A DNA stretch of 64,000 nt from a virus, in IMG/VR virus record IMGVR_UViG_3300021437_000001, positions 53,955 to 117,954 of that record; one strand, written 5' to 3'. Positions 10,144-60,393 of this stretch are shown here, one piece after another. The notes under the pieces were generated by a model. The model did no database searches. It was not told the origin of the DNA and worked only from the letters and a program-made list of their open reading frames with translations. The translations under genes and the position numbers were made by a program. Numbering within the stretch: position 1 is the stretch's first letter; each line of letters starts with the position of its first letter.

Positions 10144-10440
10144 ATGAGCGATCAACTAAACACAGGACTACTTCCTATCGGGGCAGTCAAAATTCCAGCG
10201 GTGGCTCCAGTTAAACCAGTTGCCGAAAAGCCTAAATTACGAGGGCTTACGGCTACACACGTCATCGTTGACGAAGTAGAAATCCTAACACTCGCACAAG
10301 TCGAACAAGCTCAGATCGAGAAAGTTCTAGCAATCCTTGGCAACAACAAAGCCAAAGCTGCGAATGCTCTAGGAATTACTGTTAAAACACTTTATAACAA
10401 ACTTCATGACTATGGTTTGTTTGAGAAGTACAAGGCTTAA
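10144..10440 (+). CDS. Stand-alone Fis-type HTH (HTH_8) protein
   Basis: TLAQVEQAQIEKVL...GNNKAKAANALGITVKTLYNKL, typical of the C-terminal DNA-binding domain of sigma-54 enhancer-binding proteins. Confidence 0.85.
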   Translation: MSDQLNTGLLPIGAVKIPAVAPVKPVAEKPKLRGLTATHVIVDEVEILTLAQVEQAQIEKVLAILGNNKAKAANALGITVKTLYNKLHDYGLFEKYKA

Positions 10441-28636: not shown

Positions 28637-29557
28637 TTAGATAAGATTTGCATCGGTTAAAACTTCACGAATAGTCTCTTCGTCCTCGTAAGAGTCTTCT
28701 GAGACTCGCATTACGAGATTGTCACCTTCGTATTGATCATGCAGCGCCGCAAGATCTAGAATATCTTGGCGAGTAACTTCATCAATTGAATACTCTTCCT
28801 CGTCTAATTCAGTTTCATAGTCCTCATCAGTAAATTGATTCTCACGACCATATACTGTTTGATTCTCAATGGGCTTTTCACAAACTTGCAACACTTCAAA
28901 CTTACAAATACGCATCTTTTCACCGTTGTAGTCGATAGGTACTGCAACGACATCTTTAGGATTGATCTTTACTTCGACACGAGTCCCAGACCAATTAGAG
29001 GCATAGTTCCACGCTGCGGCATGCAATCCTGCCGAACACGTTCTAGTAGGGTCATCATCCACTTGCTCTCTAGGCATTTCACAAATAGCTCCTGGACTAT
29101 TGTCAAACTTTCCGGTGTGCTTGTCTTTAAAGTCCTCAGTCACGCCACGGTAGGCAATAAAACAACCGTCGTCAGTAAAAGGGTGTCCATTATGTTCAAG
29201 GAATTTAAACAATTGCTCTCGGGAACGGTAACTTGGATTCTGTTTGAGATTCTCCCAAAACTTAAGCAAGTAAGCAAATGGAATTCCTTCACGTTTAAAC
29301 TCTAAAATGCGGGCATTTAGTTCAGTTGGTAAAGCCTCACCTGTCGAAGTGATAACTTGACCGTCTACAATTCGCAAACCGTCTTTGGCAAATTGTGCAG
29401 AGATGTCAACGAGTTCGGGAATTTCTGCGATTCGCCCTTCTTTAATTGCCAAGATAACTTTACCAAAACGGTCGTCACCTCGAGCGATAGCCAGTGTTTT
29501 ACCGTCAAAATTTACAGTCACGCTGTTTTGTGTGATGTGATAATTTATTTTTCCCAT
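28637..29557 (-). CDS. rIIB: rIIB-like protein
   Basis: FWENL.QNPS, QLFKFL, TDDGCFIAYRGV, MPREQVDDDP...CSAGLH, VKINPKDVVAVP.DY...KMR.C. Confidence 0.88.
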   Translation of the reverse strand: MGKINYHITQNSVTVNFDGKTLAIARGDDRFGKVILAIKEGRIAEIPELVDISAQFAKDGLRIVDGQVITSTGEALPTELNARILEFKREGIPFAYLLKFWENLKQNPSYRSREQLFKFLEHNGHPFTDDGCFIAYRGVTEDFKDKHTGKFDNSPGAICEMPREQVDDDPTRTCSAGLHAAAWNYASNWSGTRVEVKINPKDVVAVPIDYNGEKMRICKFEVLQVCEKPIENQTVYGRENQFTDEDYETELDEEEYSIDEVTRQDILDLAALHDQYEGDNLVMRVSEDSYEDEETIREVLTDANLI

Positions 29558-29579
29558 ACTTATCTCCTTTGTTACTTCT

Positions 29580-29608
29580 CTTATCGGTATAATTTTTTAA
29601 AACTTTAG
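29580..29608 (-). promoter_or_regulatory. Sigma-28 (FliA)-type promoter for rIIB
   Basis: TAAAGTTT-N11-ACCGATAA. Confidence 0.85.
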
Positions 29609-29925
29609 TGATTTATTGATTGATCTAGCAATTTTTTTAAAGCCTCTCGACCTTCTGCCATTGCTGCCAAGCTGACCGTGTTGTCTGGCGTATGCTCTCT
29701 CAATAGATTAAACATACGATCATACTCAGTAAACACTTCGGCCTTGCTAGTCACTAGCTGACCGATACTGTAAAGCACGGACAATTGAGCATCGGTTAGC
29801 ATTTTGAAACGCATGACTGTCATCCTATCGTCAATCTCTGAGTTATCCACGATAAGCGCATACTGTATCGTATTGATAAATGCCCTAGCCATGACTGCGT
29901 TAATATTAAGTTTTTCCATATTCAC
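29605..29925 (-). CDS. Hypothetical protein
   Basis: Lies between rIIA and rIIB; SD AAGGAG. Confidence 0.55.
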   Translation of the reverse strand: MNMEKLNINAVMARAFINTIQYALIVDNSEIDDRMTVMRFKMLTDAQLSVLYSIGQLVTSKAEVFTEYDRMFNLLREHTPDNTVSLAAMAEGREALKKLLDQSINH

Positions 29926-29928
29926 TCC

Positions 29929-31986
29929 TTATTTATTGTTTAGATACCATGTCATTTCACGTCTACATTCTGCATCTGAGTAACGGTCCATGTGTTTCAA
30001 CAATGGATATTTATCGTTAACTAACGCTTTCATTTCGGCGTCTTGTTCTAAAAACTTCACATACTCAGCATCATCTTTGAACCTTGTTACTAATACCGGA
30101 GGCACGTCCCTACCTTTATAAGCCTTGTTCATCATCTTGTATTGATCGACCATTTTAGTCAACTTTTTATTTTTAATGCCCTCAAGTTGAGACAGTTTCT
30201 CAATGATGTGTAAGTTTAAAGCCTTAGCACGCATCATTCTGAGACGTATGTCTTCGGTGATAGTGATTTGATCTGCCCAATCTTTATACAGAGTGAAGCC
30301 TTTTTCACCTTGTACGATTTCAAATGTTTCTTTCGAGACCGCAATAAAGATCGGCTTTTTGTTTTTTGCGTCGTGTCGTGAACCACCAAATTCTCGAATC
30401 ATTGTGTTCATTGATTCTTTTTTGTCTTGCCAGTCTGACAGTAAACAGTAAATATATTCTCGACCGCTTGCAGACATTGCCGATGCAGTTTCGGCGTTCG
30501 TGTCTCGACCGTAACCATTCAAGTAATGGATATTTTGTTGACTCGCAAGCTTGGCCGCCTTGATTGCTTTTGGTGTTCGTGGAGGCAAAACAAAAGTAAT
30601 GGCATGAAAGTCGTGAAACTTTCCTAAGATGTCTTGAAGGTCTTTCAAGGCCTTAGTTGGTGCCACGTCAAACTTTAATTGAGTGACTGTGCCTAGGCTA
30701 TCCGTTGTCGTGGTAGGTCTTGCTCGAATGATATACATATCTTTATTTGCACTAAGCACAGACTTGATTCGACGATTCATTGTCACTATCGACTCATCTT
30801 GATTGATCAAGTAGATGTTATGCAAATGATCAAATGGAATTCCCTTCACATTTGAGTCTTTGATCTTGTCACCACGCATTGTGTACTGGCGAAAAGTAAC
30901 AGAGCCAAGTAAGTTTGTATATAAATATTGACCGTCAAAACGAAAACCTTTGTATTCGTTATTTTGCATTACAAAATATTTGTACATACTGTGATAAACA
31001 GTGACGAATTCTTTGACAGTAGAGATTGCATTGATCTTTGCATTGACATGGTTTTTCACGTCAGTTAGAAGTTTAGTGCCGATCTTTGCAAGACCTTTGC
31101 GAGTAAAATCAGAATCATCAAGTTTTTCACGACTTGCGGAAACTTGCACAAGTCCATTAGGAATTCTGATCACCATGTAACCTGCTAATTCCTTGCGTAG
31201 GTTTTCCATTGGCGCTACTTTCTCTAATAGGTCAGAAGGTAGGGCATAAGGAATGCCGTCGATAACTAATAGACCTGAACGATTGTAGCCACTTGTAAGA
31301 TAACTAGGTAAAAAATCACTGCTATTAGTAATTAACAAAGGGCCAACTTCATAGCCTCGTAGCATAGAATCTAATGTCAAATTCTTTACCACTGGCATTT
31401 CTTCTTGTGTCCAAAAGTAACAGGCACGCTTGATCGAGTTACAAAATTCTGTAACATCTCTAGGATTGACTGCAATCTGTATTTCGCAGCCATTAGGCTG
31501 ATCAGTTTGAACTGTTTCGATTAAGTCCAATTGACCAACATTTGATGAGCCGACGTGCGCATTGTAGGTGCGACGTGTGCCGTTGACTGTGGATTGAATG
31601 ATAAAACCGTCTGCATAAGACCAAGCAGACTTAGCGCCAATGCCGAAGCCGCCTGTCTGTGTATTGTTTGTGCGCTTAGTAGAGGCACCATAAAGCACGA
31701 ACACATTAGCCATTCTGTCTGGACTAATACCAGGACCAAAGTCTCGAACTTTAAATGTTGGCTCAAGTTGAGTCGGCGCAACAACTTCGATGCGTCGAGT
31801 CTGTCCGATTTCACGATGTGCGTCACGAGCATTGCTCATGTATTCTTGTACAAGTGTGCGAATTTTATGCTCATATAAACGATTGCGAAGAATCTCAATA
31901 ACGACCGAAGGATCACCGATGCCAAATGATTGAGATTGAACGTCTTGATTTGATTCGTACTTGTTATTATGTCCAGCGATTCTCAT
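29929..31986 (-). CDS. rIIA: rIIA-like protein (GHKL/Hsp90-like ATPase N-terminus)
   Basis: LYEHK...VQEYMSNARDAH, VRDFGPGIS, YGASTK, GGFGIGAKS, ASREKL; upstream of rIIB. Confidence 0.88.
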   Translation of the reverse strand: MRIAGHNNKYESNQDVQSQSFGIGDPSVVIEILRNRLYEHKIRTLVQEYMSNARDAHREIGQTRRIEVVAPTQLEPTFKVRDFGPGISPDRMANVFVLYGASTKRTNNTQTGGFGIGAKSAWSYADGFIIQSTVNGTRRTYNAHVGSSNVGQLDLIETVQTDQPNGCEIQIAVNPRDVTEFCNSIKRACYFWTQEEMPVVKNLTLDSMLRGYEVGPLLITNSSDFLPSYLTSGYNRSGLLVIDGIPYALPSDLLEKVAPMENLRKELAGYMVIRIPNGLVQVSASREKLDDSDFTRKGLAKIGTKLLTDVKNHVNAKINAISTVKEFVTVYHSMYKYFVMQNNEYKGFRFDGQYLYTNLLGSVTFRQYTMRGDKIKDSNVKGIPFDHLHNIYLINQDESIVTMNRRIKSVLSANKDMYIIRARPTTTTDSLGTVTQLKFDVAPTKALKDLQDILGKFHDFHAITFVLPPRTPKAIKAAKLASQQNIHYLNGYGRDTNAETASAMSASGREYIYCLLSDWQDKKESMNTMIREFGGSRHDAKNKKPIFIAVSKETFEIVQGEKGFTLYKDWADQITITEDIRLRMMRAKALNLHIIEKLSQLEGIKNKKLTKMVDQYKMMNKAYKGRDVPPVLVTRFKDDAEYVKFLEQDAEMKALVNDKYPLLKHMDRYSDAECRREMTWYLNNK

Positions 31987-32032
31987 TGTGTTACTCCTTT
32001 GCTTGGCTTCATTGCCTTGCTTTCATATAATA

Positions 32033-32061
32033 CTTATCGGCAGGTTTTCAAAAAACTTTAG
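32033..32061 (-). promoter_or_regulatory. Sigma-28-type promoter for rIIA
   Basis: TAAAGTTT-N11-GCCGATAA (perfect consensus). Confidence 0.9.
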
Positions 32062-32063
32062 AA

Positions 32064-32342
32064 CTATTTTGAATTTCTTTTTTTATACTCTGACATATAA
32101 GACTCTTCCTTAGCGATTCGAGCCGCTTGCTCTTCATCCGTCTCATCTCGATAAGAATTCCAGCAAACATAAATATCTTGAGAAAAATTTGTATCTTCTG
32201 CCACAAAAACAAAAGTATTATGGCCCACAATTTCTTGTAACTGTTCAATATTAATTGCTTTATCTGGCAAAAGGGCTTTATGACTGGTCTGTACTTTTTG
32301 TTTTTCATAATTAATTTTAATAGCGTATGCGTATGCTGGCAT
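32064..32342 (-). CDS. Hypothetical protein
   Basis: Own promoter and SD AAGGAG. Confidence 0.6.
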   Translation of the reverse strand: MPAYAYAIKINYEKQKVQTSHKALLPDKAINIEQLQEIVGHNTFVFVAEDTNFSQDIYVCWNSYRDETDEEQAARIAKEESYMSEYKKRNSK

Positions 32343-32362
32343 TAAAATCTCCTTGTTTAATA

Positions 32363-32391
32363 CTTATCGGCAGAATTTTAAAAAACTTTAG
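32363..32391 (-). promoter_or_regulatory. Sigma-28-type promoter
   Basis: TAAAGTTT-N11-GCCGATAA (perfect consensus). Confidence 0.9.
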
Positions 32392-33164
32392 TCTTTTTTA
32401 ATAAATTTTTGTATATCGTCCATTGATATAAGTCCCATAGGTGCCAAGCCATTATTTACACTCTTCAATTCAAAAAAGAAGTCTGGCTGTTCACCGAAGG
32501 CTTTAAATTCAAAACCGACTTGCGTCACATGGCCCACGGGTTTAGTCAAAAAATAAGCGGCATCATACCAAGACCGCAAGTCTGAACTGCCTCGGATATT
32601 GTCTGCGGCATTCTTAGACTTTGACGTCTTATTGTGATGCACAAGCATGATCGCCGTGCCACTGTCCCGCTGTAAGTGTCTCAATTTGGTAAGTATCTTA
32701 CTCATTTGAGACGTGCTACCTTCGGCAGTGTTCGGAATGAGACGCACCAATGGGTCCATAATGATAAGCAATGGCCTCTCTTCAGTCACTTGCTTTCGCA
32801 ATGCCTCAAAATGCTCATCGTTATCTAGTGCGAAGTTTTGCCCTGCCACGATTGACACGTTTTGTCGTAGGTCTCGCATTGAGGCTTGTTTTGCTCTGCA
32901 AATTTGCTCTAGACGTTCTTTGATAATTGCACCGCTATCCTCGCCTTGTATCATCATGACTCTGCCTTGTTTCAATACGTTATACATTCCAAAACATTTT
33001 TCACCTGTGGCAATACTGACCAACAATTCACCAGCAAGCCAAGACTTTCTCGTTTTGGGATCACCTGCCACAAGACACGTTGACGACTCTGGTAGTAGTC
33101 TCTCAATGAGCCATGATGTGTTGCCTTTATCATCTAGTTGATCAATTGATTCAAACTTAAACAT
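32388..33164 (-). CDS. RecA-fold ATPase/helicase (AAA_25, RepA-like)
   Basis: WLIERLLP, GDPKTRKS, QGED, IIMDP, LVHH, IRGSS. Confidence 0.8.
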   Translation of the reverse strand: MFKFESIDQLDDKGNTSWLIERLLPESSTCLVAGDPKTRKSWLAGELLVSIATGEKCFGMYNVLKQGRVMMIQGEDSGAIIKERLEQICRAKQASMRDLRQNVSIVAGQNFALDNDEHFEALRKQVTEERPLLIIMDPLVRLIPNTAEGSTSQMSKILTKLRHLQRDSGTAIMLVHHNKTSKSKNAADNIRGSSDLRSWYDAAYFLTKPVGHVTQVGFEFKAFGEQPDFFFELKSVNNGLAPMGLISMDDIQKFIKKD

Positions 33165-33187
33165 TTGGCCCTTGCCTTTCTCCTATC

Positions 33188-33217
33188 CTTATCGGTAGGT
33201 ATATTGAAAAACTTTAG
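33188..33217 (-). promoter_or_regulatory. Sigma-28-type promoter
   Basis: TAAAGTTT-N12-ACCGATAA. Confidence 0.75.
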
Positions 33218-33253
33218 CAAAATAGTCAACTATTACAATAAAAAAATGTCTAC

Positions 33254-33475
33254 CTAGTTGAACTGAGACGTCTCAGGTAGATACATTTCATTGAGTTGAT
33301 CAAGTAAAATGCTAGCGTACACCTCGGGTGTATTGATATGAGACGGTAGGTTCGTGATTAGTACCACGAACCCAGACGCCTCGAGTGTTTCAATCCAGGA
33401 CATTGCCTCATCATCTAATTCATTGACAAGACGTTCTGCTGTAGCATATTGAGATTTACCTTTGATTAGTATCAT
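33254..33475 (-). CDS. Hypothetical early protein
   Basis: Coupled to the upstream ORF. Confidence 0.5.
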   Translation of the reverse strand: MILIKGKSQYATAERLVNELDDEAMSWIETLEASGFVVLITNLPSHINTPEVYASILLDQLNEMYLPETSQFN

Positions 33476-33666
33476 TTTGACTCCAATTTTTGGTTTATTA
33501 ATTCTTGCAATCCTCGTGCCGATACCATTAATGAATGAATTTCTAACATTAAGACGCCACAAACTAACGGCATATCAGATTGATTCAAGTGGCCGTGTCT
33601 CTCCATTTGAGACACTAATGCCTTGAGTTTGTTTGCTCTGTCAATCATAAACTGAACCTGTTCCAT
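33472..33666 (-). CDS. Hypothetical early protein
   Basis: SD AGGAG; coupled. Confidence 0.55.
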   Translation of the reverse strand: MEQVQFMIDRANKLKALVSQMERHGHLNQSDMPLVCGVLMLEIHSLMVSARGLQELINQKLESK

Positions 33667-33968
33667 TATGAGACTCCTAGGAATTTGTAGCGTTTTGTTA
33701 CGACGTGTACTGTATTAAATTGAGACGTGTTGACTATTTCTCCAGTCTCGACGTTCAATAGTTCAAAACTTGAGTCTGAAATCAGTACCTCAGTGACGTC
33801 TTGACTTAGTCGGTAGCATCCTATCTTTTTGCCCTCTGAGTACTTGCGGACCCATGCGGTAGCATCGGCGAAAGTGTCAAGCGGTGTCGATAAGTCTCGA
33901 CCGTTTTGCGTGACCATGTACCAAGACCGTTGACCAAGGGTATGTCTTAAAATGAAACACTTATCCAT
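33666..33968 (-). CDS. Hypothetical early protein
   Basis: Coupled ORF. Confidence 0.55.
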   Translation of the reverse strand: MDKCFILRHTLGQRSWYMVTQNGRDLSTPLDTFADATAWVRKYSEGKKIGCYRLSQDVTEVLISDSSFELLNVETGEIVNTSQFNTVHVVTKRYKFLGVS

Positions 33969-34191
33969 TTGACACCTTCTTGTTTCGTTTTGATACAGGT
34001 AGGTTTCGAGACTCTTTCAAGGCTTGCTGCGCATCTTGAATCATGCTTTCGACTGCGGTCAATGTAACTTTTGCGCCGTGAGCCTTAACAACGGCTAGCA
34101 AAACTTGTGCCAAATTCATTATTAACACCGTGTCCTCATTGAAGACAGGATTAGGTTGTTTCAATTTGATAACTTTCGCATTCTGTTCCAT
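33961..34191 (-). CDS. Hypothetical early protein
   Basis: Sigma-28 promoter and SD AAAGGAG. Confidence 0.6.
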   Translation of the reverse strand: MEQNAKVIKLKQPNPVFNEDTVLIMNLAQVLLAVVKAHGAKVTLTAVESMIQDAQQALKESRNLPVSKRNKKVSNG

Positions 34192-34222
34192 TTTGATACT
34201 CCTTTGTTTAGTGTTCGTTTTT

Positions 34223-34252
34223 CTTATCGGACGATTGAGTCAAAAACTTAAG
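34223..34252 (-). promoter_or_regulatory. Sigma-28-type promoter
   Basis: TTAAGTTT-N12-TCCGATAA. Confidence 0.7.
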
Positions 34253-34270
34253 AACTATTTTTGTCTCAAA

Positions 34271-34873
34271 TTAGCACGCTCCCCAGCCAGCAAGCATCGT
34301 CTCAAATTGAGACTCTTTTTTGATTGCTTTTTCACGTTCAATTTTTATTTTTGCGTCAAGTTTTGCCTTGACCGTTGCAATTTTTGTCTTGAGGCTTGCA
34401 ATCCTTTTTTGCAAGCCTTGCGGTCTCAAGTCACCTTGACAGACTGGACATTTTGCGGACTGATAGACTTTCAAGGCAAGCAATCGAGACTTGCAAGCGC
34501 CGCAAGTGTGAAAGGCTTTCGACCGTGTCAACGGCTTGCTTTCAAGGTCACGCAATTGCGTCGATAGCGCCTTGACTCGGTCTTGCAATTTTGACAGTGA
34601 CTTGCTTTCGATAGTCACCTCACAAAAATAAACAGCCACAACGGTGTCCCATTTTGAGGCATTTTTCAAACAAAAATCATGTGCCTCATTATAAGACGTA
34701 AAGACTTGATCAAGTCTATAGTCTACTTTTGAGACAGTTTGAAAGTCGCCGCTATAACCGTCTTGATGTCCATTTTCGAGACGGTCTTGATCTTGTTTTG
34801 ACTTAAATAGATCATAAATCTCATTTCGAGACAACTTTCCTTTTCTAGTTGTCTCAATATTACACGCTCCCAT
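34271..34873 (-). CDS. Zinc-finger coiled-coil early protein
   Basis: GHQDGYSG motif; CGAC...CPVC; SD AAGGAG. Confidence 0.65.
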   Translation of the reverse strand: MGACNIETTRKGKLSRNEIYDLFKSKQDQDRLENGHQDGYSGDFQTVSKVDYRLDQVFTSYNEAHDFCLKNASKWDTVVAVYFCEVTIESKSLSKLQDRVKALSTQLRDLESKPLTRSKAFHTCGACKSRLLALKVYQSAKCPVCQGDLRPQGLQKRIASLKTKIATVKAKLDAKIKIEREKAIKKESQFETMLAGWGAC

Positions 34874-34915
34874 TTGACACGCTCCTTTTTGATACGTTGT
34901 TTAGTAGACGTCACG

Positions 34916-34947
34916 AAAAAGGCCCCATCTCAAAATGAGACAGGGCC
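34916..34947 (-). terminator. Intrinsic terminator whose stem contains the 15-bp palindrome
   Basis: Minus strand GGCCCTGTCTCATTTTGAGATGGGGCC-TTTTT. Confidence 0.7.
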
Positions 34948-34955
34948 ACAAAGGA

Positions 34956-35438
34956 TTACACCGCCTCATCCTGAGACGTTTTTCGGACATTTGGTTGTAT
35001 TGAATTGGGAATCTGTATTCTTTTGAGACCAGTTATTTTGCGTGCCAAAATGAGACCATCATTCCAGTCGTCTTGACGTCCGTCGCTTGCGACGTCGATA
35101 AGATCACCTAGACGATGTTTCAAAATGATAAGGCAAGCGGTCACGACTGTATCATACGGATACATATTCGTTTTGCAAAAATCTGACTCATTTTGAGACA
35201 AGTGCTCTCGCATAACGAAGTCCTCACATGAGCCGACTCGTTCTGAGCCATTCACTTTGAGACCACCATAGAGTTTTGGCTCACAATGAGCCGAAAATCC
35301 AGCGAGACCGCCAAACGTCTCAGAATAATACCGTATCGTTTTGGCACATTCATAAATCGCTTTTTGATACGCTGCCTCAGATTGAGTCGCTTTGCCTTTC
35401 GGCGCTTTTTTGAAAGTCCAGTAATGCGTATATCCCAT
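34956..35438 (-). CDS. Conserved-looking phage protein of the MGYTHYW type
   Basis: MGYTHYW...FCKT...YD..V...L...SDG pattern. Confidence 0.65.
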   Translation of the reverse strand: MGYTHYWTFKKAPKGKATQSEAAYQKAIYECAKTIRYYSETFGGLAGFSAHCEPKLYGGLKVNGSERVGSCEDFVMREHLSQNESDFCKTNMYPYDTVVTACLIILKHRLGDLIDVASDGRQDDWNDGLILARKITGLKRIQIPNSIQPNVRKTSQDEAV

Positions 35439-35504
35439 TTTGATACTCCTTTGTTTTGAGACCGTCGTCTTGACAAGTCTCGGTTTTGTTTTGCTGTCTT
35501 ATCT

Positions 35505-35533
35505 CTTATCGGTCACTTTTTTAAAAACTTGAG
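35505..35533 (-). promoter_or_regulatory. Sigma-28-type promoter
   Basis: TCAAGTTT-N11-ACCGATAA. Confidence 0.8.
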
Positions 35534-35558
35534 GCTTTCAGTCAACTTTTTTAAAAAA

Positions 35559-35846
35559 TCACGCCGCTTTAAATTGATTCAATATGTCCCAATCTGAGAC
35601 AGTTTCATTGGTATCGTCCCAAACTAAGACAGTACGTCCAGCGTGACCGTGCAATAGGATAGCGTCAACCCATGTCTCAAATTGAGTCACTGAATTGATC
35701 TTGCGAGTCGAGCCGTCCGCAAGTTTTGCGTCAACGGTCCAGCGGACTTGCGTCAAGCCTTGCGCATTGACTTGACCGCTTGCAACGTGTCCAGTGCCCG
35801 ACGTGCCTGTCAAGTCTTGCAATCGTATCAACTTAAATGTTCTCAT
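35559..35846 (-). CDS. Hypothetical early protein
   Basis: D..G.SGTG.VA.G...HGH.G.T pattern; SD AAAGGAG. Confidence 0.65.
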   Translation of the reverse strand: MRTFKLIRLQDLTGTSGTGHVASGQVNAQGLTQVRWTVDAKLADGSTRKINSVTQFETWVDAILLHGHAGRTVLVWDDTNETVSDWDILNQFKAA

Positions 35847-35932
35847 TTTGAGACTCCTTTGTTTACGTCTTGCGTCAATATTGACAGACGACGTCAAAAC
35901 AGTCAAGTAAAAAATACAGTCTCATTTTGAGA

Positions 35933-36130
35933 CTAAAGACCGTACCATGTCAAACTGAGACGGTCTTGATTTTCATTCAATCGGTCAAGTTCAAGGTCTG
36001 TCAAGTCTTGCAACGTGTCAAGATAGCTTGCGGACTGGACAAAAAAGCCGTCGCCGTCCAGTGACTCGACGCAAGCCTCAATTTTTCGACCGTCAACGGT
36101 CAAAACAAGATCTTTTTTGCGTTGTCTCAT
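35933..36130 (-). CDS. Hypothetical early protein
   Basis: Coupled to the Gp88-like gene. Confidence 0.55.
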   Translation of the reverse strand: MRQRKKDLVLTVDGRKIEACVESLDGDGFFVQSASYLDTLQDLTDLELDRLNENQDRLSLTWYGL

Positions 36131-36131
36131 A

Positions 36132-36800
36132 TTAAGCCACCTTATCCCACGTCGTGTTTTGATAGTTTTTTGCGCCGTGATAGACTAGACCGATTTTGTT
36201 TTGCTTGCCTTGCGCCGCTATCAAGTCGTCTTGCGTGCTGTCAACGTAGCCAGCCGCTTGCAATGCCTCTAGACTTTCAAACACTTTCGAGTGAAAGTCT
36301 GTCTCAATTTGAATCAAGTCGTCTTGTTTGCCACCGAAGGAAAAAATGACTCGGAATGAGACAGGCAAGTTTTTATAGGACTGTATCATTTTGACCATTT
36401 TTGAATAGGCATAAAATGAGACACGTTTTTCTGTCTCAAAATGGCGCATGATTGCAATCCATTTTTCAAAATATTCAAGGCTGTAAAAATCACCCGCATC
36501 ATGAATTCTCACTTTGAGATTTTCAACGCTTCTCTTTTTGAGCCATGTCTCAATTTCGGAAATCATTGCAGGGACAAAATTCTCACTTTGAGACAGTTCA
36601 AGTTTTGCATTATGAGCCGATACGGACGACTTGAAACGATACGTTCCAGATCGAGCGTAGCATCCTGAGACGCATGCGCTTGCCATTGGGCACGTCTTGA
36701 AACCTGTCTCAGATTGAAACGCTGGCAAGGTCCAGTTAACGACCGTTGTCCCACTTTGAGACGACTTTTTCATTTTTGCATTTTGAGTTAACAATATCAT
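36132..36800 (-). CDS. Gp88-family (radical-SAM-like) protein
   Basis: NAKMKK, TCPMASACVSGCYA, RIHDAGDFYS, FYAYSK. Confidence 0.75.
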   Translation of the reverse strand: MILLTQNAKMKKSSQSGTTVVNWTLPAFQSETGFKTCPMASACVSGCYARSGTYRFKSSVSAHNAKLELSQSENFVPAMISEIETWLKKRSVENLKVRIHDAGDFYSLEYFEKWIAIMRHFETEKRVSFYAYSKMVKMIQSYKNLPVSFRVIFSFGGKQDDLIQIETDFHSKVFESLEALQAAGYVDSTQDDLIAAQGKQNKIGLVYHGAKNYQNTTWDKVA

Positions 36801-36846
36801 TTTGATACTCCTTTGTTTTGCAAGCCGTCTTGACTTGCTTGACTAT

Positions 36847-36875
36847 CTTATCGGTCACTTTTTTAAAAACTTGAG
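36847..36875 (-). promoter_or_regulatory. Sigma-28-type promoter
   Basis: TCAAGTTT-N11-ACCGATAA; identical to the copy at 35505. Confidence 0.8.
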
Positions 36876-36894
36876 GCCTTTTTTGCAAAAAAAT

Positions 36895-36928
36895 AAAAAA
36901 AGAGGCCGTATCAGATTGATACAGCCCC
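36895..36928 (-). terminator. Intrinsic terminator containing a palindrome variant
   Basis: Minus strand GGGGCTGTATCAATCTGATACGGCCTC-TTTTTT. Confidence 0.65.
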
Positions 36929-36941
36929 TATTCGTCTCAAA

Positions 36942-37730
36942 TTAAGCCGCTTTGATCAATTGAGTCGCAGCGTCCCATATTGAGGCGTTCAAGTCGATAG
37001 CTTTCACGCTTTCAGTCTTGATTTTGCGTGCTGTCATGTTGCGGACGTTTTGCACGCCGTTCTCATCTTGAGACACTGTTTGGTATCTCAATCCGAAACG
37101 AATAATGTTCTCTTGTATCACATTGAGACAACTAAACAAGTCATTTTTTGCGTCGTCTTGACGTCGGACTTTCAGCAAGTCCGCAATCTCAATCTTGACA
37201 ACGTTGTCAATGCCTTGCAATCGGATTGACGCAACGTCTTGCGCAAGCTTGATCAACTCACTCGGTGACACGTCACGGGCTTGCATCATTTTGACCGTAT
37301 CAACTAAAGACTCACGTTGAGCAACTAGTCTCGGAATGAGACTGTCAAGTTCTTGATACGGATTGCCTAAGTGTTTCACTTTGATTGTCTCAAAATGAGT
37401 CCCAACGTTCAATTGGTTGGCGCAAGTCCCACGGAAAAGACCTAAAACGCCTTGAAGTGAGCCGTATAAATGTGGGACTTTAAAAATGATGTCAAAACCG
37501 AGGCCGTCAATTGCAAAACCGTCTCTTGATCGGTATCTTGCAACGGTCGTTTGAAAGTCTTGACGGTCTGGACTTTTTGCCTTGCCTGTCTTAAGATGAA
37601 CTAGGTCAAAACCGTGACTGTCTAGGACTTCAGCTATCAATGCGGGCTTGATAGCTTGAAAGCGGTCTGATTTTGAAACGTGTTTTTGATCTTGCACGAA
37701 GCTAGTTGAAACTGTGTTATTTTGAGACAT
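36942..37730 (-). CDS. DUF932-like protein
   Basis: GLFR..CAN.L, KVKH, RRQDD..NDLF...NVIQENII..G, LN..IW. Confidence 0.7.
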   Translation of the reverse strand: MSQNNTVSTSFVQDQKHVSKSDRFQAIKPALIAEVLDSHGFDLVHLKTGKAKSPDRQDFQTTVARYRSRDGFAIDGLGFDIIFKVPHLYGSLQGVLGLFRGTCANQLNVGTHFETIKVKHLGNPYQELDSLIPRLVAQRESLVDTVKMMQARDVSPSELIKLAQDVASIRLQGIDNVVKIEIADLLKVRRQDDAKNDLFSCLNVIQENIIRFGLRYQTVSQDENGVQNVRNMTARKIKTESVKAIDLNASIWDAATQLIKAA

Positions 37731-37781
37731 TTTGCACTTCCTTTGTTTTAACGGTCGCATCATTGCGCCGTCGATAGTTAA

Positions 37782-37810
37782 CTTATCGGTGACTTTTTAA
37801 AAAACTTGAG
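37782..37810 (-). promoter_or_regulatory. Sigma-28-type promoter
   Basis: TCAAGTTT-N11-ACCGATAA. Confidence 0.8.
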
Positions 37811-37828
37811 GCCTTTTTTAAAAAAAAC

Positions 37829-37954
37829 TTATCTTTTTTGCATCGACTCGACAACTGTCTTAATTTGAGCCGTTGTCGGTATTGACACCATCAAGCACGC
37901 CGCCCCATAAAGATACAGTCCTAAAATGAGACTAAAAGCTATTAACTGTTTCAT
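37829..37954 (-). CDS. Small membrane peptide (41 aa)
   Basis: SD AGGAG; MKQLIAFSLILGLYLYGAAC... Confidence 0.5.
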   Translation of the reverse strand: MKQLIAFSLILGLYLYGAACLMVSIPTTAQIKTVVESMQKR

Positions 37955-37966
37955 ATTGAGATTCTC

Positions 37967-38116
37967 CTATTGTTTAGTATTTAAGTCAAGTATATTCTCA
38001 TCTTGAGACGAAAAAGACTCGACCGCTAAGTATCCCAATATGAGACACCAAGCTGTTGTGTATCCATTTGAGCCGAAAGTCAAGTAAACAAAAATAAGCA
38101 ATGAAAACTGTTTCAT
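37967..38116 (-). CDS. Small membrane peptide (49 aa)
   Basis: MKQFSLLIFVYL...; SD AAGGGG. Confidence 0.5.
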   Translation of the reverse strand: MKQFSLLIFVYLTFGSNGYTTAWCLILGYLAVESFSSQDENILDLNTKQ

Positions 38117-38132
38117 ATTGATACGCCCCTTT

Positions 38133-38402
38133 TTATTCAAAATCAGATAAGTCAAAACCCATTGAGTCAACGGCTTGCAAGACAGGCGTCTCAAAATGAG
38201 ACTCATATAGACTTATCAAGTCTTGACCTAGGTCTTGCACGGCTTGACTTTTTGACGCTTGCATTGCACGCAAGGCTTTCGACTTATAACTCATGTCACC
38301 ACCCATGCAACGGTCAAGCTGTCTCAAAGTGAGATGCTCAACGATTTCTGTCCAGATTTGAGACATTTGAGCTTGAACTTGACGATTTTTGTCTTGTCTC
38401 AT
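38133..38402 (-). CDS. Hypothetical early protein
   Basis: Coupled to the upstream small ORF. Confidence 0.6.
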   Translation of the reverse strand: MRQDKNRQVQAQMSQIWTEIVEHLTLRQLDRCMGGDMSYKSKALRAMQASKSQAVQDLGQDLISLYESHFETPVLQAVDSMGFDLSDFE

Positions 38403-38403
38403 A

Positions 38404-38565
38404 TTAAGCCGCCTTTCTCAAAACGATACATACGGTTGGATTGTTCTCAAATTGAGCCTGTTGCTTTTTGATACGTTTTGGCTTGCTTGCGCCCTCGGCG
38501 TGTCCAGCCTTAAGTTTTGTCAAAATCACGTTTTTTTGTCCAGCTATCAGTTTAGGTTGTCTCAT
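38404..38565 (-). CDS. Small basic protein (53 aa), first gene of the leading region
   Basis: SD GAAAGG; MRQPKLIAGQKNVILTKLKAG...VLRKAA*; below the ORF-track cutoff. Confidence 0.6.
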   Translation of the reverse strand: MRQPKLIAGQKNVILTKLKAGHAEGASKPKRIKKQQAQFENNPTVCIVLRKAA

Positions 38566-38602
38566 TTTGAAGCCTTTCGTTTCGGGTTGATACTTAACTA
38601 TC

Positions 38603-38620
38603 TTGCACGCCGCATGCCAA
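38603..38620 (-). promoter_or_regulatory. Sigma-54 (-24/-12) type promoter
   Basis: Minus strand TTGGCATGCGGCGTGCAA (GG-N10-GC), about 40 nt upstream of the first leading-region ORF; IHF-like site at about 38623-38644. Confidence 0.65.
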
Positions 38621-39427
38621 CGTAAACACCTGAATTCACTTAAGTCTCAATCTGAGAAAGCGTCGATCTTTTAGTCAATCCAGCCCCTAAACCCTAAACC
38701 CCAGCAAAACCCACTACTTAAGGCCTGTCAATCTTATATACAAGAGTGACAGTTTTTGTCAAGTATCTCATATTGGTACACTGCCACGTTTTCACCTATA
38801 TATAGAAAAACAACATAATCCCATAGTGAGACATATACACTTATTAAGGTCTATCTAGTCAAGGTCAAGTCTAGACCTAGGTCAACGGATAGCGTGACGA
38901 TAGGTCAAGGCCTTGAGATAGTATTGCGGCAAGGTCAACGGATAGCAAGACAGAAAGGATTGAAATCTCAATATGAGACATGAATGGGTGTGAGTGTGTT
39001 GGAATGAGACAATCAGCGGATAGCAAGACAGACGACCGTTGTCAAGCGTCAAAAAACTATCTAGTCGAGCGCAAAGCGTTTCAATTTGAGAATCTATGCG
39101 AAAATAAAAAAGAAAAAAGAAAGCGTCTCAAAATGAGACTCTGACGATAATGTATATTATCATCACGTTTCAAAATGAGAATCCTCAATGAATACGGGGG
39201 GATAGCTGCGTTGCAGTGCCGAGGCCCTATGCTTGTGCCTAGTAGTCTCTCACAATTTTTTTAGCATTATATTAGTTGACGCACTGCGTTAAGCCTACAG
39301 TTTGCCAGACAGTTGATTTCCAGAAACGAAAATCCTGATTGAAAATTTTATTTTTTGAGTGTGTAATAAGTTCTTGATTAGATTGCTAGTTTTTGTATTT
39401 TTTACACTTATAAATGACGCATTGCAT

Positions 39428-43702: not shown

Positions 43703-44408
43703 CGGAGTCCTCCTGTTCAAGTTTGATCTTAGTGAGCATTTGCGCATCTGTCAATTCTTTTCTGCAAAACTCTAAAAGTTCTCGTTCTGAGACAGGTTTC
43801 CAATCCCACACGTCAACTCCGAGGTTAATCTGTGGAATAAAGCGTTTTTGCTCTTCACTCCAAAACATTCTAGATTTCCAAGCATTATGGACGTGCCCAT
43901 GCAATAGCACCTGACAAAGCTCCGAAGGTTTAGGTCGTAGTTGTTGGTATCTAGGCGTGTATTCAAAATTTCCATGATCTTCTTGAAAAGGAAAATGGCA
44001 AATTTGTGCTGCTACTTTATTCTCATCCATAATGTCGATTGCTGGTTTTTCTTCAGCTTCAGAAAGAATCAATGAGTAATACTCAGGACAGATAACAAAT
44101 CCCATATCTTCATAGCGTTTATAGGAATTGGCTTTCTTTTCAGCTTTATTTTTGTGCATGACGCTGTGACATTTGTCATGATTACCAGGAATCAAGAACC
44201 ATCTTCCGTTGAGATACTTACGCATCTCGGCACCCTGATAACTTAGACTAAAGTCACCAAAACAAAAAACTTCGTCTTCAGGTTTGACTAAAGCATTGAA
44301 GTTGTCAACAATGCCTTTATTCATCTCCTCTACGCTACTCCAAGGTCTGCCTGAGTATTGAATTATGTTTCTGTGCCAGAAGTGGATGTCACTTGTAAAC
44401 CATCGCAT
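43689..44408 (-). CDS. Calcineurin-like phosphoesterase
   Basis: TSDIHF.H, GDFS, GNHD, CHFP, LHGHVH, NLGVD.W. Confidence 0.9.
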   Translation of the reverse strand: MRWFTSDIHFWHRNIIQYSGRPWSSVEEMNKGIVDNFNALVKPEDEVFCFGDFSLSYQGAEMRKYLNGRWFLIPGNHDKCHSVMHKNKAEKKANSYKRYEDMGFVICPEYYSLILSEAEEKPAIDIMDENKVAAQICHFPFQEDHGNFEYTPRYQQLRPKPSELCQVLLHGHVHNAWKSRMFWSEEQKRFIPQINLGVDVWDWKPVSERELLEFCRKELTDAQMLTKIKLEQEDSDENS

Positions 44409-44767
44409 AAATGTTTCCTTTTATAAGATTTTCTAATTCGAGCAGATTCTTTACCGTGATCAGAATGTGACATAATAGTCAAATTGCCCTTTGTATTATT
44501 AAGAGTGTCATGGTCTTCGTGATTCACATCTAATTGAGGATCAGTTACACCTTTGACCAAACGGTGTAAATAAATCGTTCTGCCACCTGGAGCCCTTGCA
44601 ACAACTCGCTCATATACATAAGAAGAATAGCTGCCATCTTTCTTTAGGACAAATTTTTTATGAAGAAGCCAGTTGAAGCCACGAACTTTATCAAAGTCTT
44701 CGGCATCAATAGTTGCATATTTGCCTTTTCCATATTTACCGCCAAGTGGTATTTGCATGGTTCTCAT
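44363..44767 (-). CDS. HNH endonuclease (HNH_3-like)
   Basis: ATIDAEDF, YLHRLV, VNHEDHDTLNNTKGNL. Confidence 0.75.
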   Translation of the reverse strand: MRTMQIPLGGKYGKGKYATIDAEDFDKVRGFNWLLHKKFVLKKDGSYSSYVYERVVARAPGGRTIYLHRLVKGVTDPQLDVNHEDHDTLNNTKGNLTIMSHSDHGKESARIRKSYKRKHLCDGLQVTSTSGTET

Positions 44768-51235: not shown

Positions 51236-52081
51236 TTAAAAGTTCAGCTTCATTGCTGAAGAATTTTTTATTCCATCTCGTTTTTTGTCATACGAGCCAA
51301 TTGTAGTATTTACACTAGAATGTCCTGCAAAGTCAGCAACATTTCTAGGAGATTCACCATTTTCCAGTAATTGTGAAATTGCTGTGGCACGACAAGAATG
51401 TGGTGATACTTTACGAGTAACTCCTATCATTTTTGCATACCTCTTTACCAAGTGATAAATAGTAGATCCAGTTACCTGTAATAGAAATCTTTCTGAATTT
51501 TGCGGCCACAAAGGTGAATTAACCAATTGTGGCAATAGAAGTTCAGCTAATTTTGGATGTGCTGGAATCATGCGGTATTTGCCGCCTTTGCCGTCTATAC
51601 GCAAAACAATTTGTCCATCCATATCTTTTATATCGCAAAATCGTAAATAAGCAATTTCTGAGCGTCTTAAACCTGCGTAAAACAAAAGAGCTAAAATTAA
51701 CAAATCTCGTTCTCGTTCAACAGGAGTGGCTCGCTCTTTGACAGCTTTAAACATTTTTCGTACTTCATCATCAGTAAAAGCTTGTGTAGGCTCTGAGACA
51801 GATACTTTTGGAGATTTTACTCCGGCAAATGGGTCAATGCCCAATTTACCCTGTCCTCGTAGAAATTGACAAAAACTTCTAACGCTAGACATTTTTCTAG
51901 CTACGCTAGAAGATGTGAGGCCTTTTCGTACTAAAGTGTCTCGAAATAAGATTACAGACGGTCTATCAAGAACTCCTCCTGTGATTTCTCGGTACTGTCT
52001 TAAATCTAGCCCATAAGACCTGACAGTCTCATCTGTGCTTTGTCCTCCAATAAATTCCAGCATATCCATGTTGAAATCCAC
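51236..52081 (-). CDS. Tyrosine recombinase (XerC/D-like)
   Basis: SVARKMSSVRSF, GLRRSEI, GKGGK.R, SPHSCR, AGH, Y. Confidence 0.88.
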   Translation of the reverse strand: MDFNMDMLEFIGGQSTDETVRSYGLDLRQYREITGGVLDRPSVILFRDTLVRKGLTSSSVARKMSSVRSFCQFLRGQGKLGIDPFAGVKSPKVSVSEPTQAFTDDEVRKMFKAVKERATPVERERDLLILALLFYAGLRRSEIAYLRFCDIKDMDGQIVLRIDGKGGKYRMIPAHPKLAELLLPQLVNSPLWPQNSERFLLQVTGSTIYHLVKRYAKMIGVTRKVSPHSCRATAISQLLENGESPRNVADFAGHSSVNTTIGSYDKKRDGIKNSSAMKLNF

Positions 52082-52816: not shown

Positions 52817-53503
52817 TTACCCTTGGGTCGTCGTGTCTAGGCTCGTCCATCCCAGTGCCTCCGCTATAGTTGGAAGTTCTTTTACCAAAATGTCTCTAAT
52901 TGCTAACGCAATAGCCTGGTGTTCTTTTTGAGTTCCATTTCCGCAACGAAGATTCAAATAGTGAATCCAGGAGCGAAGGGAGCCATTCATGTAAAGTTTA
53001 GTCGTAGTCGATTGCGGCAATAGAAAGCGAGCTTGTTCTTTTGCTATACCTTTTCGTAAAGCTAAATTATAAATACGCTCGCAGTTTTCTTGAACCTCGT
53101 CTTGTCGATCTTTAAACCACTGCTTATCTTCTTCAGACATATCATCAACGGAATTTTGTCGATTTTTTGAATCTTGACGTCTAGCCTCATACGTTTCAAA
53201 CGATTGCACAGCCGCATACCGTTGAGAAAATTCCTGAAAACTAAATGACCGATGTCTAAGTATCTGAGTAGCAATAGCTCTAGAAGTCTCAATTTCAAAA
53301 ACCATATTTGCCATTTCAAAAATAGAGACGTGTCCATTATCTAGGCAATATTTGAGAAGTTTAGGATTCCCTGAAGTTTGGTTTGAAGGATTAGACACCC
53401 TAGCGCAATACATAACAAGTTCTTCTGGATTGTCAAAACAATTAAGTTCAGCTTCCAAAACAGGATCACAAATTTGAGTTTTTGCAATTAATCGTACTTT
53501 CAT
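52817..53503 (-). CDS. thyX: Flavin-dependent thymidylate synthase
   Basis: ARVS, GH.SIFE, QILRHRSFSFQEFSQRY, EQARFLLP, Q.EH. Confidence 0.95.
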   Translation of the reverse strand: MKVRLIAKTQICDPVLEAELNCFDNPEELVMYCARVSNPSNQTSGNPKLLKYCLDNGHVSIFEMANMVFEIETSRAIATQILRHRSFSFQEFSQRYAAVQSFETYEARRQDSKNRQNSVDDMSEEDKQWFKDRQDEVQENCERIYNLALRKGIAKEQARFLLPQSTTTKLYMNGSLRSWIHYLNLRCGNGTQKEHQAIALAIRDILVKELPTIAEALGWTSLDTTTQG

Positions 53504-54494: not shown

Positions 54495-55409
54495 TCATCT
54501 GTCAATTCCTCTTGTTGCTTTTGTAATCTCGTATCGCACTAAACGAGCTACCTTTCCAGGCTCACCAGAACCAATAATTCTACCGTCAACTTTTATAATA
54601 GGAGCAGTTTCGACATAAGTACCGCTAATGAAAATTTCGTCTGCTGTATAAATATCAGGTTTAGTCAAACGACGCTCAATTACTTGATAGCCTTTTTCTT
54701 GCAAAAGTTGAGCAAACCATTGACGTGTTAATCCAGATAAAATAGAACCTGTTTGAGGTGGTGTAAATACGACACCTTGTTTTACGACAAAAATATTTGC
54801 AACAGAAGCTTCAACAACATAGCCATCATTATCACAAAAAAGAACTTCATCGACACCTTCAAACTCGTGTTTGCAGTTGTGCAAAACTGCATAATTTGCA
54901 GTAGTCTTAGCTTGCATTTGATAATTTGGATAGCCTCTAGGAGTTGCTGAAATTCTCGCAGTTATTCCGTTTTCTTTATTTACTGGTTTTATAGGAAAAG
55001 CATATATGTCTAATGCAATTCGATTTGTTTGCGCTCGTACTGATTCGGCATCTTGTGTTGCATAAGCAATCGGACGAAGATATAAATCTCCACCACCAGC
55101 GGCCTCTACAACTTCTTGACAAGCCTCTATTACTTGTTCAACAGTGTATGGAATTTCTATGTTCAAAATTTTTGCTGAATTGAAGAGACGAATAATGTGC
55201 TGTTTTAATAGCCAAATCTGAGTTGTGCCATCTTCTTTTAGGTAAGAACGAATTCCTTCCCAAACCGCTGGAGCACCGTAGTGCATAACAAAATTGAAAC
55301 TGTCAATTGGTGTTTTATGAGAAGAAATTGACCCATCTGCCCAGACACGAAATTGTCCTACAGGTTTAGGTTTTTGTTTTGCTGATCTAATTTTAAAACC
55401 TGCTCCCAT
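54495..55409 (-). CDS. ilvE: Branched-chain amino acid aminotransferase (PLP fold IV)
   Basis: MHYG..VWEGIRSY, H..RL.NSA, YLRP, AKTTANY, E...ANIF, ILSGLTR, ADEIFISGT. Confidence 0.85.
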   Translation of the reverse strand: MGAGFKIRSAKQKPKPVGQFRVWADGSISSHKTPIDSFNFVMHYGAPAVWEGIRSYLKEDGTTQIWLLKQHIIRLFNSAKILNIEIPYTVEQVIEACQEVVEAAGGGDLYLRPIAYATQDAESVRAQTNRIALDIYAFPIKPVNKENGITARISATPRGYPNYQMQAKTTANYAVLHNCKHEFEGVDEVLFCDNDGYVVEASVANIFVVKQGVVFTPPQTGSILSGLTRQWFAQLLQEKGYQVIERRLTKPDIYTADEIFISGTYVETAPIIKVDGRIIGSGEPGKVARLVRYEITKATRGIDR

Positions 55410-55513: not shown

Positions 55514-55590
55514 TGGTTGCGGGGGTGGGACTTGAACCCACGACCTCTAGGTTATGAGCCTAGCAAGCTAACCAACTGCTCCACCCCGCT
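55514..55590 (-). tRNA. tRNA-Met (CAT), initiator-like
   Basis: AGCGGGGTGGAGCAGTTGGTTAGCTTGCTAGGCTCATAACCTAGAGGTCGTGGGTTCAAGTCCCACCCCCGCAACCA; cloverleaf, encoded CCA, unpaired 1:72. Confidence 0.93.
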
Positions 55591-59766: not shown

Positions 59767-60393
59767 ATGAGTTATGATGAAATTCTTAAACAAGAAGGTT
59801 CACTTAGAAAAGCTGCTTTAAAATTAGGACTTACAAAATCAAAACTTATGGTTTTGTGGAAAAAGGAGTTGGGACTTTGTACCGCAACCACTAGTTGTCA
59901 AAACACACCCAAACAAGGTTGTACTAGATGTGAATTGCATCTAAAATACGCAGTAGAAACGGCAGATAAAAAAAGAGCAAGTTTATATTTTAAAAAATTT
60001 AGAGAGGCCAATAAAAAATATCTGTCTAGTTATCACAAACAATGGCAAAAAGATAATAAAGAACGAGTGAACAGTAGTAATAGAAAATATGCCAAAACTG
60101 AAAAAGGTAGAGTAGTTAACAATGCCAAACACGCTTATAGAAGGGCTTTACAGAAGGCTGCCACACCTGCTTGGGTGGACAAGAAAGCTCTCAAACAAGT
60201 ATATAAAAATTGCCCTAAAGGTTACCATGTTGATCACATCATACCCCTCGATAATGACTTGATTTGTGGCTTACATGTACCGTGGAATCTTCAAATTCTT
60301 TCTGCATACGAAAATGACTCTAAAGGAAATAAATGGGATGGTACATACGAAAACGAGACTTGGCGCAAGGACTTGAAAAAGGAAGTAAAGTAG
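59767..60393 (+). CDS. HNH endonuclease
   Basis: [14 protein letters not shown]....[12 protein letters not shown]...EN..K.N; own promoter TTGACT-N17-TATTCT at 59721. Confidence 0.85.

Follow-up and report, generated by a model that had tools for sequence, protein, structure and literature searches.

A 15-bp palindrome carpets a gene block of an uncultured phage: a possible enhancer field for a host sigma-54 activator

What would make a virus write one 15-bp palindrome, GTCTCA-N3-TGAGAC, over and over through the coding sequence of its own small genes, and which protein is supposed to read it? The question is raised by a gene block in the uncultured phage of IMG/VR virus record IMGVR_UViG_3300021437_000001, of which positions 53,955 to 117,954 make up the 64,000-nucleotide window analyzed here. 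The window covers the second half of the genome (117,954 bp), the whole of which we call G000, and coordinates are positions in the window unless stated otherwise. An initial annotation, made from the letters alone, had picked out these palindromes by eye, and its claims are taken up below where our results bear on them.

Our answer, which on balance we believe to be the right one, is that the block is a field of enhancer or operator sites for dimers of the helix-turn-helix (HTH) domain HTH_8, wired to a sigma-54 activator of the host and antagonized by a truncated copy that the phage itself carries. If so, the phage would offer a clear example of operator copying, with the regulatory site of a host reproduced at very high density within viral genes, in a genome that also encodes a truncated, DNA-binding-only version of the regulator that reads it. 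Three features are unusual: the 12–18 sites per kb that run across genes, the adoption of an operator from the host, and the presence of a truncated activator alongside. Nothing on these features turned up in the literature searched. The annotation had gone further, saying that no system of this kind was described, and that was too strong; enhancer sites of bacterial enhancer-binding proteins (bEBPs) and dispersed phage operators are both known kinds.

The palindrome and the level of selection

The four perfect copies noticed by eye (34299, 35919, 38188, and 39125) are the four that a scan returns, where shuffles give 0.01. The estimate of some 50 or more near-copies was, if anything, cautious: with up to three mismatches allowed, 93 sites lie within 32000–39200, or ∼13 per kb, and the window as a whole has 127 matches vs. 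25.2 ± 4.6 in shuffles (maximum 37). The carpet, as we call this field, is also as local as had been said. One G000 genome holds 21 sites with at most one mismatch and 75 with at most two, and 63 of those 75 fall between ∼30.0 and 40.0 kb of the window. Its upper stop is abrupt, as described (the last site is at 39167–39181), but its lower start had been placed too high; the carpet reaches ∼32.4 kb, thinning through a gene for an AAA_25 protein.

The geometry of the site is strict in some respects and loose in others. Forty half-site pairs have a spacer of exactly 3 bp, each of the other spacers from 0 to 12 has at most one pair, and the spacer is rich in A/T (a fraction of 0.85 vs. 0.58 region-wide), so that the constant, mostly A/T spacer of the annotation stands. 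The inner positions (TCTCA) are conserved as well as the outer ones. Sites do not overlap, their smallest distance being 12–14 bp and the median ∼50 bp, and they show no helical phasing (p = 0.36). Within a site, the left and right halves vary independently (4 compensatory pairs vs. 7.95 expected), and their pairing is no better than that of shuffled halves; therefore, what is read should be duplex DNA, and the reader a dimer, rather than an RNA or single-strand hairpin. One could still imagine that the palindromes act as hairpins in RNA or single-stranded DNA, as signals for stability, processing, or priming: a perfect copy can fold into a 6-bp stem closed by a 3-nt loop, and two copies cap terminators. 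However, most copies have two or three mismatches and would not fold, and besides the missing covariation, there is no preference for wobble pairs on the mRNA strand. We find the hairpin idea scarcely credible.

Is the signal, then, written at the level of DNA or of protein? When the 15 minus-strand open reading frames (ORFs) are shuffled in a codon-preserving manner, 44 sites with at most two mismatches are observed vs. 6.1 ± 2.1 in the shuffles (maximum 14, n = 500), an excess of ∼7-fold, and the density above such shuffles that the annotation had proposed as a check is thus found. The shuffle baseline is itself far above the rest of the genome, and therefore, the amino acid sequences have been bent too. 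All three reading frames are in use (33, 22, and 15 sites); where the frame would give a TGA codon, sites are altered (e.g., to TGG), which accounts for the one asymmetry of the site matrix. The proteins encoded across the carpet carry recurrent SQxET and LxxR peptides, which shows how strongly a DNA-level signal can reshape proteins, and three ORFs begin with MRQ, as the annotation had pointed out. Avoidance of a restriction site is not the explanation, the half-sites GTCTCA and TGAGAC showing no depletion in the 110 kb beyond the carpet, where they occur 16 and 22 times, respectively.

The same carpet is found in six other uncultured IMG/VR phage contigs (G001, G002, G024, G025, G026, and G027). 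G025 (176 kb) and G026 (169 kb) are complete genomes like G000, and the other four carpet contigs are incomplete; G002 is a syntenic relative of G000, with 60–90% protein identity. Each carpet spans 4–8 kb and holds 37–60 sites with at most two mismatches, the site matrix is identical across all seven, and the genes inside are small ones shuffled around a recurring module that encodes a DUF932 protein, a GP88 protein, a 160-aa protein, and a 200-aa protein. The rII genes adjoin the carpet in all five carpet phages compared for them, and the genes that carpet phages have in common include rIIA/rIIB, HNH endonucleases, the major head protein, and several enzymes. Among orthologs, the sites themselves turn over: 19 of 49 G000 sites are matched at the aligned position in G002. 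The 200-aa gene has six sites in G000 and five in G002, where it lies inside the carpet, and none in the G001 ortholog, which lies outside it; homologs of the 160-aa gene have 0–1 sites in 71 of 80 loci; and G017 (locus L162), which has homologs of several carpet genes, has no carpet. The signal is, therefore, a property of a genomic region, found in some lineages, and not of any protein family. Taken together, the spacer, the independent halves, the shuffles, and the turnover among orthologs support the view, already put forward in the annotation, that the carpet consists of selected, degenerate duplex-DNA sites for a dimer and not of duplications.

A looser scatter of the palindrome occurs in two related phages of ∼50% GC that share no genes with G000, G003 (L143) and G004 (L114), which, at up to two mismatches, have 33 sites over 12 kb and 16 over 14.5 kb, respectively.

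Promoters, the host activator, and the phage's HTH-only protein

The first pointer to a reader comes from the promoters inside the carpet, with which the annotation had not connected the palindromes. Sigma-54-type matches (TGGCA-N7-TGCW) number 24 in G001, 24 in G025, and 15 in G026, vs. 3, 2, and 1 in the control, and they lie mostly in or beside the carpet in G001 and G025 (in G026, only 6 of 15 do). Those inside the carpets stand on the gene strand (16 in G001, 12 in G025, and 7 in G027), usually 11–220 nt before an ORF (in G025, up to 492), and have several palindromes upstream. In G000, the promoter at the head of the carpet has palindromes starting 39, 213, and 360 nt upstream. That is, the carpets present what one looks for in bEBP enhancers, sites upstream of −24/−12 promoters on the gene strand, where the promoters are sequence matches; likewise, a dyad-symmetric 6-N3-6 site with a strict spacer and independent halves is what an HTH_8 dimer at such an enhancer would call for. 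The second type of promoter is that of FliA (sigma-28), with eight co-oriented copies in G000 and nine in G002. Those of G000 match the attack-phase consensus of Bdellovibrio bacteriovorus, TTAAG-N16-CCGATA, which PMC3627812 reports in 92 of 140 attack-phase promoters.

Who would fire the sigma-54 promoters? The Sigma54_activat domain is absent from all five carpet phages searched (three of the five complete), and G000 encodes no sigma-70-type factor. Such promoters depend on an activator ATPase, and because these phages lack one, the activator must come from the host.

A presence/absence comparison of genes leaves few candidate readers. What G000 does encode is P0001, a stand-alone protein of 98 aa with an HTH_8 domain of the Fis/NtrC type (E = 4.9e-11), whose gene lies within the plus-strand block of replication genes. 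With its length of ∼98 aa, its N-terminal arm, and its C-terminal HTH_8, it has the makeup of a Fis-family protein, and its residues 6–92 align with Fis (98 aa; E ∼ 4e-4), but NtrC-type HTH domains match it better. Among the best 80 of at least 564 genome matches to its HTH, 76 are from Bdellovibrionales or Bdellovibrionota, as read from record titles. The protein on the host side is ∼350 aa long and consists of Sigma54_activat, AAA_lid, and HTH_8 with no receiver domain; in B. bacteriovorus, its HTH_8 is 61% identical to P0001 residues 48–96 (49 residues). The best match of the HTH-only ORF of G025 is the same Bdellovibrionales activator gene. This presumably cognate AAA+/HTH_8 activator is conserved in the Bdellovibrionales, the likely host clade, and is not found in the carpet phages.

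The palindrome is there too. In 57 full loci around the activator gene, there are 55 sites vs. 7 in a reversed control, and 22 of the 55 fall at locus positions 1900–2200, which is the 5′ end of the activator ORF, a pattern typical of autoregulation. With at most one mismatch, five Bdellovibrionales genomes contain 71, 88, 86, 62, and 21 sites vs. 12, 17, 7, 10, and 2 in the control, so that the scan of Bdellovibrionota genomes proposed in the annotation finds a 5- to 12-fold enrichment. The palindrome thus enriched now has a named candidate binder. The guess at a Bdellovibrionota host fits the relatives of the HTH, the palindrome-rich Bdellovibrionales genomes, and the attack-phase type of the promoters, and two of the binders then suggested, a sigma-54 enhancer-binding protein and the Fis-type HTH protein at 10144, are now the best candidates. 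G000 is a freshwater phage, probably of predatory Bdellovibrio-like bacteria; it has no close DNA relatives in the named phage collection. All this points to large uncultured phages of predatory bacteria, the Bdellovibrio phages in the excerpts of literature searched being small only. Searching the literature for this palindrome or its binder in phage, iteron, or Bdellovibrio sigma-54 contexts, with supplements outside the search, we found nothing.

The favored mechanism would run as follows. The palindrome would be the operator of the sigma-54 activator (a bEBP with an AAA+ domain and HTH_8) conserved in the Bdellovibrionales, and the covered block would be a set of small accessory genes (DUF932, GP88, 160-aa, 200-aa, and orphans) driven by closely packed sigma-54- and FliA-type promoters. 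The enhancer sites would have to lie inside coding sequence because these genes are so small and so close together. Upon infection, the activator already present in the host would occupy the sites and fire the sigma-54 promoters; later, the HTH-only copy, made from the replication-gene operon, would contend for them, on phage DNA and probably on the host chromosome as well. Because an HTH-only copy cannot activate, the block would be switched off. The data show the sites, the selection on them, the promoters as sequences, the homology, and the operator signature on the host side; we infer the binding, the activation, and the antagonism in this scheme, and what it offers is a testable model in which a phage couples its accessory genes to the sigma-54/FliA program of its host and later uncouples them.

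The distribution of the HTH-only gene speaks for such a pairing. A small HTH_8-only ORF is present in all three complete carpet genomes (G000, G025, and G026); above the cut-off, none of 13 relatives without a carpet has one, nor does any of 18 module-bearing phages without a carpet. The ORF found in G022 (L205:9236–10144) fuses an AAA+ region with a GAFTGA-like motif to HTH_8 and looks like a full-length phage-encoded sigma-54 activator.

Several observations weigh against this account, and they deserve to be set out together. G018, G019, and G023 carry close homologs of the HTH_8 protein yet have no carpet, from which it follows that the HTH-only protein is not sufficient for one; the HTH_8-bearing G020 has just 17 sites vs. 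2 in the control. Summed over the phages found through their HTH (G018–G023), there are 52 sites vs. 21 in the control, and over HTH-less relatives, 16 vs. 29. Neither G018 (searched de novo) nor L162 has a carpet of some other palindrome. The four incomplete carpet contigs show no HTH_8 in their assembled parts, and the positive co-occurrence comes down to three genomes, which we take as about two lineages on the assumption that G025 and G026 are kin. The key DNA-contact residues of Fis (R85, R89, and K90) are not conserved in P0001. That the host belongs to the Bdellovibrionales is something that we infer from sequence. The sites are distributed uniformly relative to the promoters, with no fixed distance, but they are excluded from promoter cores. 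Enhancer duty alone does not explain ∼9 sites per promoter, and G000 and G002 have just two sigma-54-type promoters each vs. 16 in G001, at a site density that is comparable, though lower. Finally, HTH_36 initiators of unrelated phages have the same palindrome as an iteron inside their genes, so other families can read it.

The mismatch between few sigma-54 promoters and similar site density in G000 and G002 keeps two other readings alive. The first is a decoy: the carpet would soak up the host activator, or some other factor that reads the palindrome, from ∼60–90 chromosomal operators, collapsing the host regulon, and transcription of the phage block would be secondary. The numbers are of the right order, with 21 sites per phage genome at up to one mismatch and 75 at up to two vs. 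21–88 at up to one in genomes of the host clade; replicated phage DNA would presumably outnumber the host sites many times, and site density is about as high where sigma-54 promoters are few. But a non-coding tandem array would be a cheaper sponge than sites that cost amino acids, the sites occur in just one gene block, which is rich in promoters, such a sponge would also take up the HTH-only protein of the phage itself, and HTH-only phages without a carpet exist. We think this reading unlikely.

A bolder combination of the sponge with the favored scheme can also be drawn, in which operator mimicry is a two-part takeover of a predator: ∼100 operator copies would first attract the attack-phase sigma-54 activator and later deplete it, an HTH-only copy with a dominant-negative effect would block the host's ∼100 operators, the regulon would collapse, and the early genes of the phage would be timed in the process. 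We regard this picture as doubtful, if a shade less so than the plain decoy.

The second is a silencing coat, in which the HTH-only protein or another phage protein makes stoperator-like roadblocks of the sites and, once the early phase is over, silences accessory genes that may be toxic, with no part for a host activator. The co-occurrence of carpet and HTH-only gene in all three complete carpet genomes, the place of that gene in the plus-strand replication block, and the sites inside genes and on both sides of promoters would all suit it. Yet the sigma-54 promoters of the carpets need a bEBP ATPase that the phages do not encode, the sites avoid promoter cores, and the identity of the motif with the host-clade operator would be an unexplained coincidence. 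This makes the coat quite improbable in our eyes.

Other readers and known systems

Among the nearest known systems is that of the NtrC family, whose sigma-54 activators use upstream activator (enhancer) sites, as NtrC does at glnAp2, at two or three per promoter. Like these, the carpet is made of palindromes with the geometry of an HTH_8 dimer upstream of −24/−12 promoters, and the likely host clade has an AAA+/HTH_8 activator whose own gene carries the site. Unlike these, the carpet has tens to ∼100 sites per 5–8 kb and runs through coding sequence, the phage lacks the activator and has an HTH-only copy, and the block's promoters are mostly of the FliA type in G000 and G002.

Fis itself reads sites with a degenerate 15-bp core, G/C at ±7, and an A/T-rich center, and the carpet site resembles them in its 15 bp, its G at position 1 and C at position 15, and its A/T-rich center. 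It differs in that the inner TCTCA is as conserved as the outer positions, and P0001 differs from Fis in the weakness of the match and in its contact residues.

The stoperators of Cluster A mycobacteriophages (L5 gp71) are asymmetric 13-mers that depend on orientation, are mostly intergenic, and occur ∼25–35 times in a genome; their reader is a temperate phage's immunity repressor. The carpet shares with them the many dispersed copies of one site in a phage region, beyond the classical pair of promoter and operator; its site has dyad symmetry, is packed more than 10 times as densely, and falls inside genes. A perfect palindrome being neither asymmetric nor orientation dependent, we do not count the carpet among the stoperators. 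No repressor-type gene was found among the ORFs scanned, most of the genome having been outside the Pfam scan.

Could the reader belong to a different process altogether, such as an initiator with iterons for replication control or handcuffing, a centromere-like array, or a coat that protects or pulls the DNA that enters first? Initiators like lambda O have origin iterons inside their own genes, and in unrelated phages of 36–75% GC, we find three to five perfect palindromes inside initiator-like genes with the same layout (L097:7715–7828, L144:2556–2700, L126:1097–1175, L048:7587–7667, L100:4995–5075, and L076:8808–8897). Pfam HTH_36 is found in the proteins of L144 and L126 and, below the cut-off, in that of L097, and a helix with the motif SRATV.R is present in all four of the initiator-like proteins checked (L097, L144, L126, and L048). 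These iterons consist of exactly the same 15-bp word, again translated as SQxET peptides, and one end of the carpet is marked by the gene for an AAA_25 helicase-like protein. However, the iterons are just three to five copies inside their own gene, with spacings of 17–70 bp that are mostly 21–42 (∼2–4 helical turns). The carpet lacks phasing, G000 has no HTH_36 match at E 10 or better and no Phage_rep_O, and HTH_36 is above the cut-off in none of the five other carpet phages. We, therefore, rejected iterons of the HTH_36 or lambda-O type.

A centromere fares no better. The annotation had noted a likeness to parS; G000 has no ParB_N, and the array is not compact but spans 6–8 kb of coding DNA, which speaks against parS/ParB. 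As for first entry, the block had been called a leading region whose sites might coat the first-entering DNA, to shield it from nucleases or to anchor or pull it at injection. The assembly is circular with a 122-bp end overlap, and nothing marks a genome end at the carpet; the contigs of G002, G025, and G026 continue through both of its borders. The overlap (G000:C1:1–230 and 117730–117954) sits in a repeated fiber-type gene, which makes the circular join uninformative on the true ends of G000. The G001 contig ends 128 bp before its first site, and that of G027 breaks within the DUF932 gene. Comparison of the assembly and of contig borders gave no evidence of a genome end or terminal repeat, of first entry, or of a role in injection at the carpet, and the claim of a leading region, with the protective role proposed for it, finds no support. 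All told, we consider readers of this other kind very unlikely.

Genes and elements in and beside the carpet

The features of the locus are collected in Table 1. At the head of the carpet, a non-coding cluster of palindromes stands upstream of the first sigma-54-type promoter, which is the layout expected of an enhancer. Interleaved with these palindromes is a 20-nt direct repeat (TCAACGGATAGCAAGACAGA-like) in three copies within 38882–39032. The two terminators with palindromes that the annotation had listed are confirmed, each with its palindrome at the apex. Neither the 160-aa nor the 200-aa protein qualifies as the binder, their AlphaFold models (pLDDT 91) having no HTH and no match in PDB at E ≤ 0.001.

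Table 1. Features of the carpet and its surroundings (window positions)
Feature	Position	Strand	Remark
Carpet of 15-bp palindrome GTCTCA-N3-TGAGAC	32388–39181	none	mismatch scans, shuffles
P0001, stand-alone 98-aa Fis/NtrC-type HTH_8 protein	10144–10440	+	candidate phage-encoded reader or competitor
Carpet head, non-coding, palindrome cluster upstream of first sigma-54-type promoter	38566–39181	−	
Sigma-54-type promoter TGGCAT-N5-GTGCA (GG-N10-GC)	38604–38619	−	39 nt before first small ORF
Second sigma-54-type promoter TGGCAC-N5-TTGCT	34097–34112	−	inside carpet
Eight co-oriented FliA (sigma-28)-type promoters AAG-N15/16-CCGATA	29582–37807	−	at 37784, 36849, 35507, 34225, 33190, 32365, 32035, and 29582
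DUF932 protein, 273 aa	36942–37763	−	member of conserved module
Intrinsic terminator	36901–36929	−	variant palindrome GTATCA-N3-TGATAC at apex
GP88 family (PF17338) protein, 222 aa	36132–36800	−	member of conserved module
160-aa protein	34956–35438	−	member of conserved module; confident model with no HTH or PDB match
Intrinsic terminator	34921–34947	−	palindrome at apex
200-aa protein, zinc ribbon and coiled coil	34271–34873	−	
AAA_25 (RepA/DnaB-like) protein	32388–33164	−	at thinning end of carpet
rIIB (28637–29557), 106-aa ORF, rIIA (29929–31986)	28637–31986	−	directly downstream of carpet

At the upstream border, the non-coding stretch 39104–39422 has 80% identity to G002 across 328 bp and 82% to G024 across 115 bp, and it may be regulatory DNA or encode an RNA. 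An 18-nt repeat (TATTAGTTGACGCACTGC-like) occurs in three copies, at 39270, 39408, and 39530.

Farther along the window, the phage, which otherwise looks lytic, has a tyrosine recombinase (Phage_integrase with a SAM-like N-terminal domain, 51236–52081), close to which are ThyX (52817–53503), an aminotransferase (54495–55409), and a tRNA-Met (55514–55590). Two genes of the HNH or endonuclease VII type, at 44363–44767 and 59767–60393, are patchily common to G001, G002, and G009 and are probably mobile.

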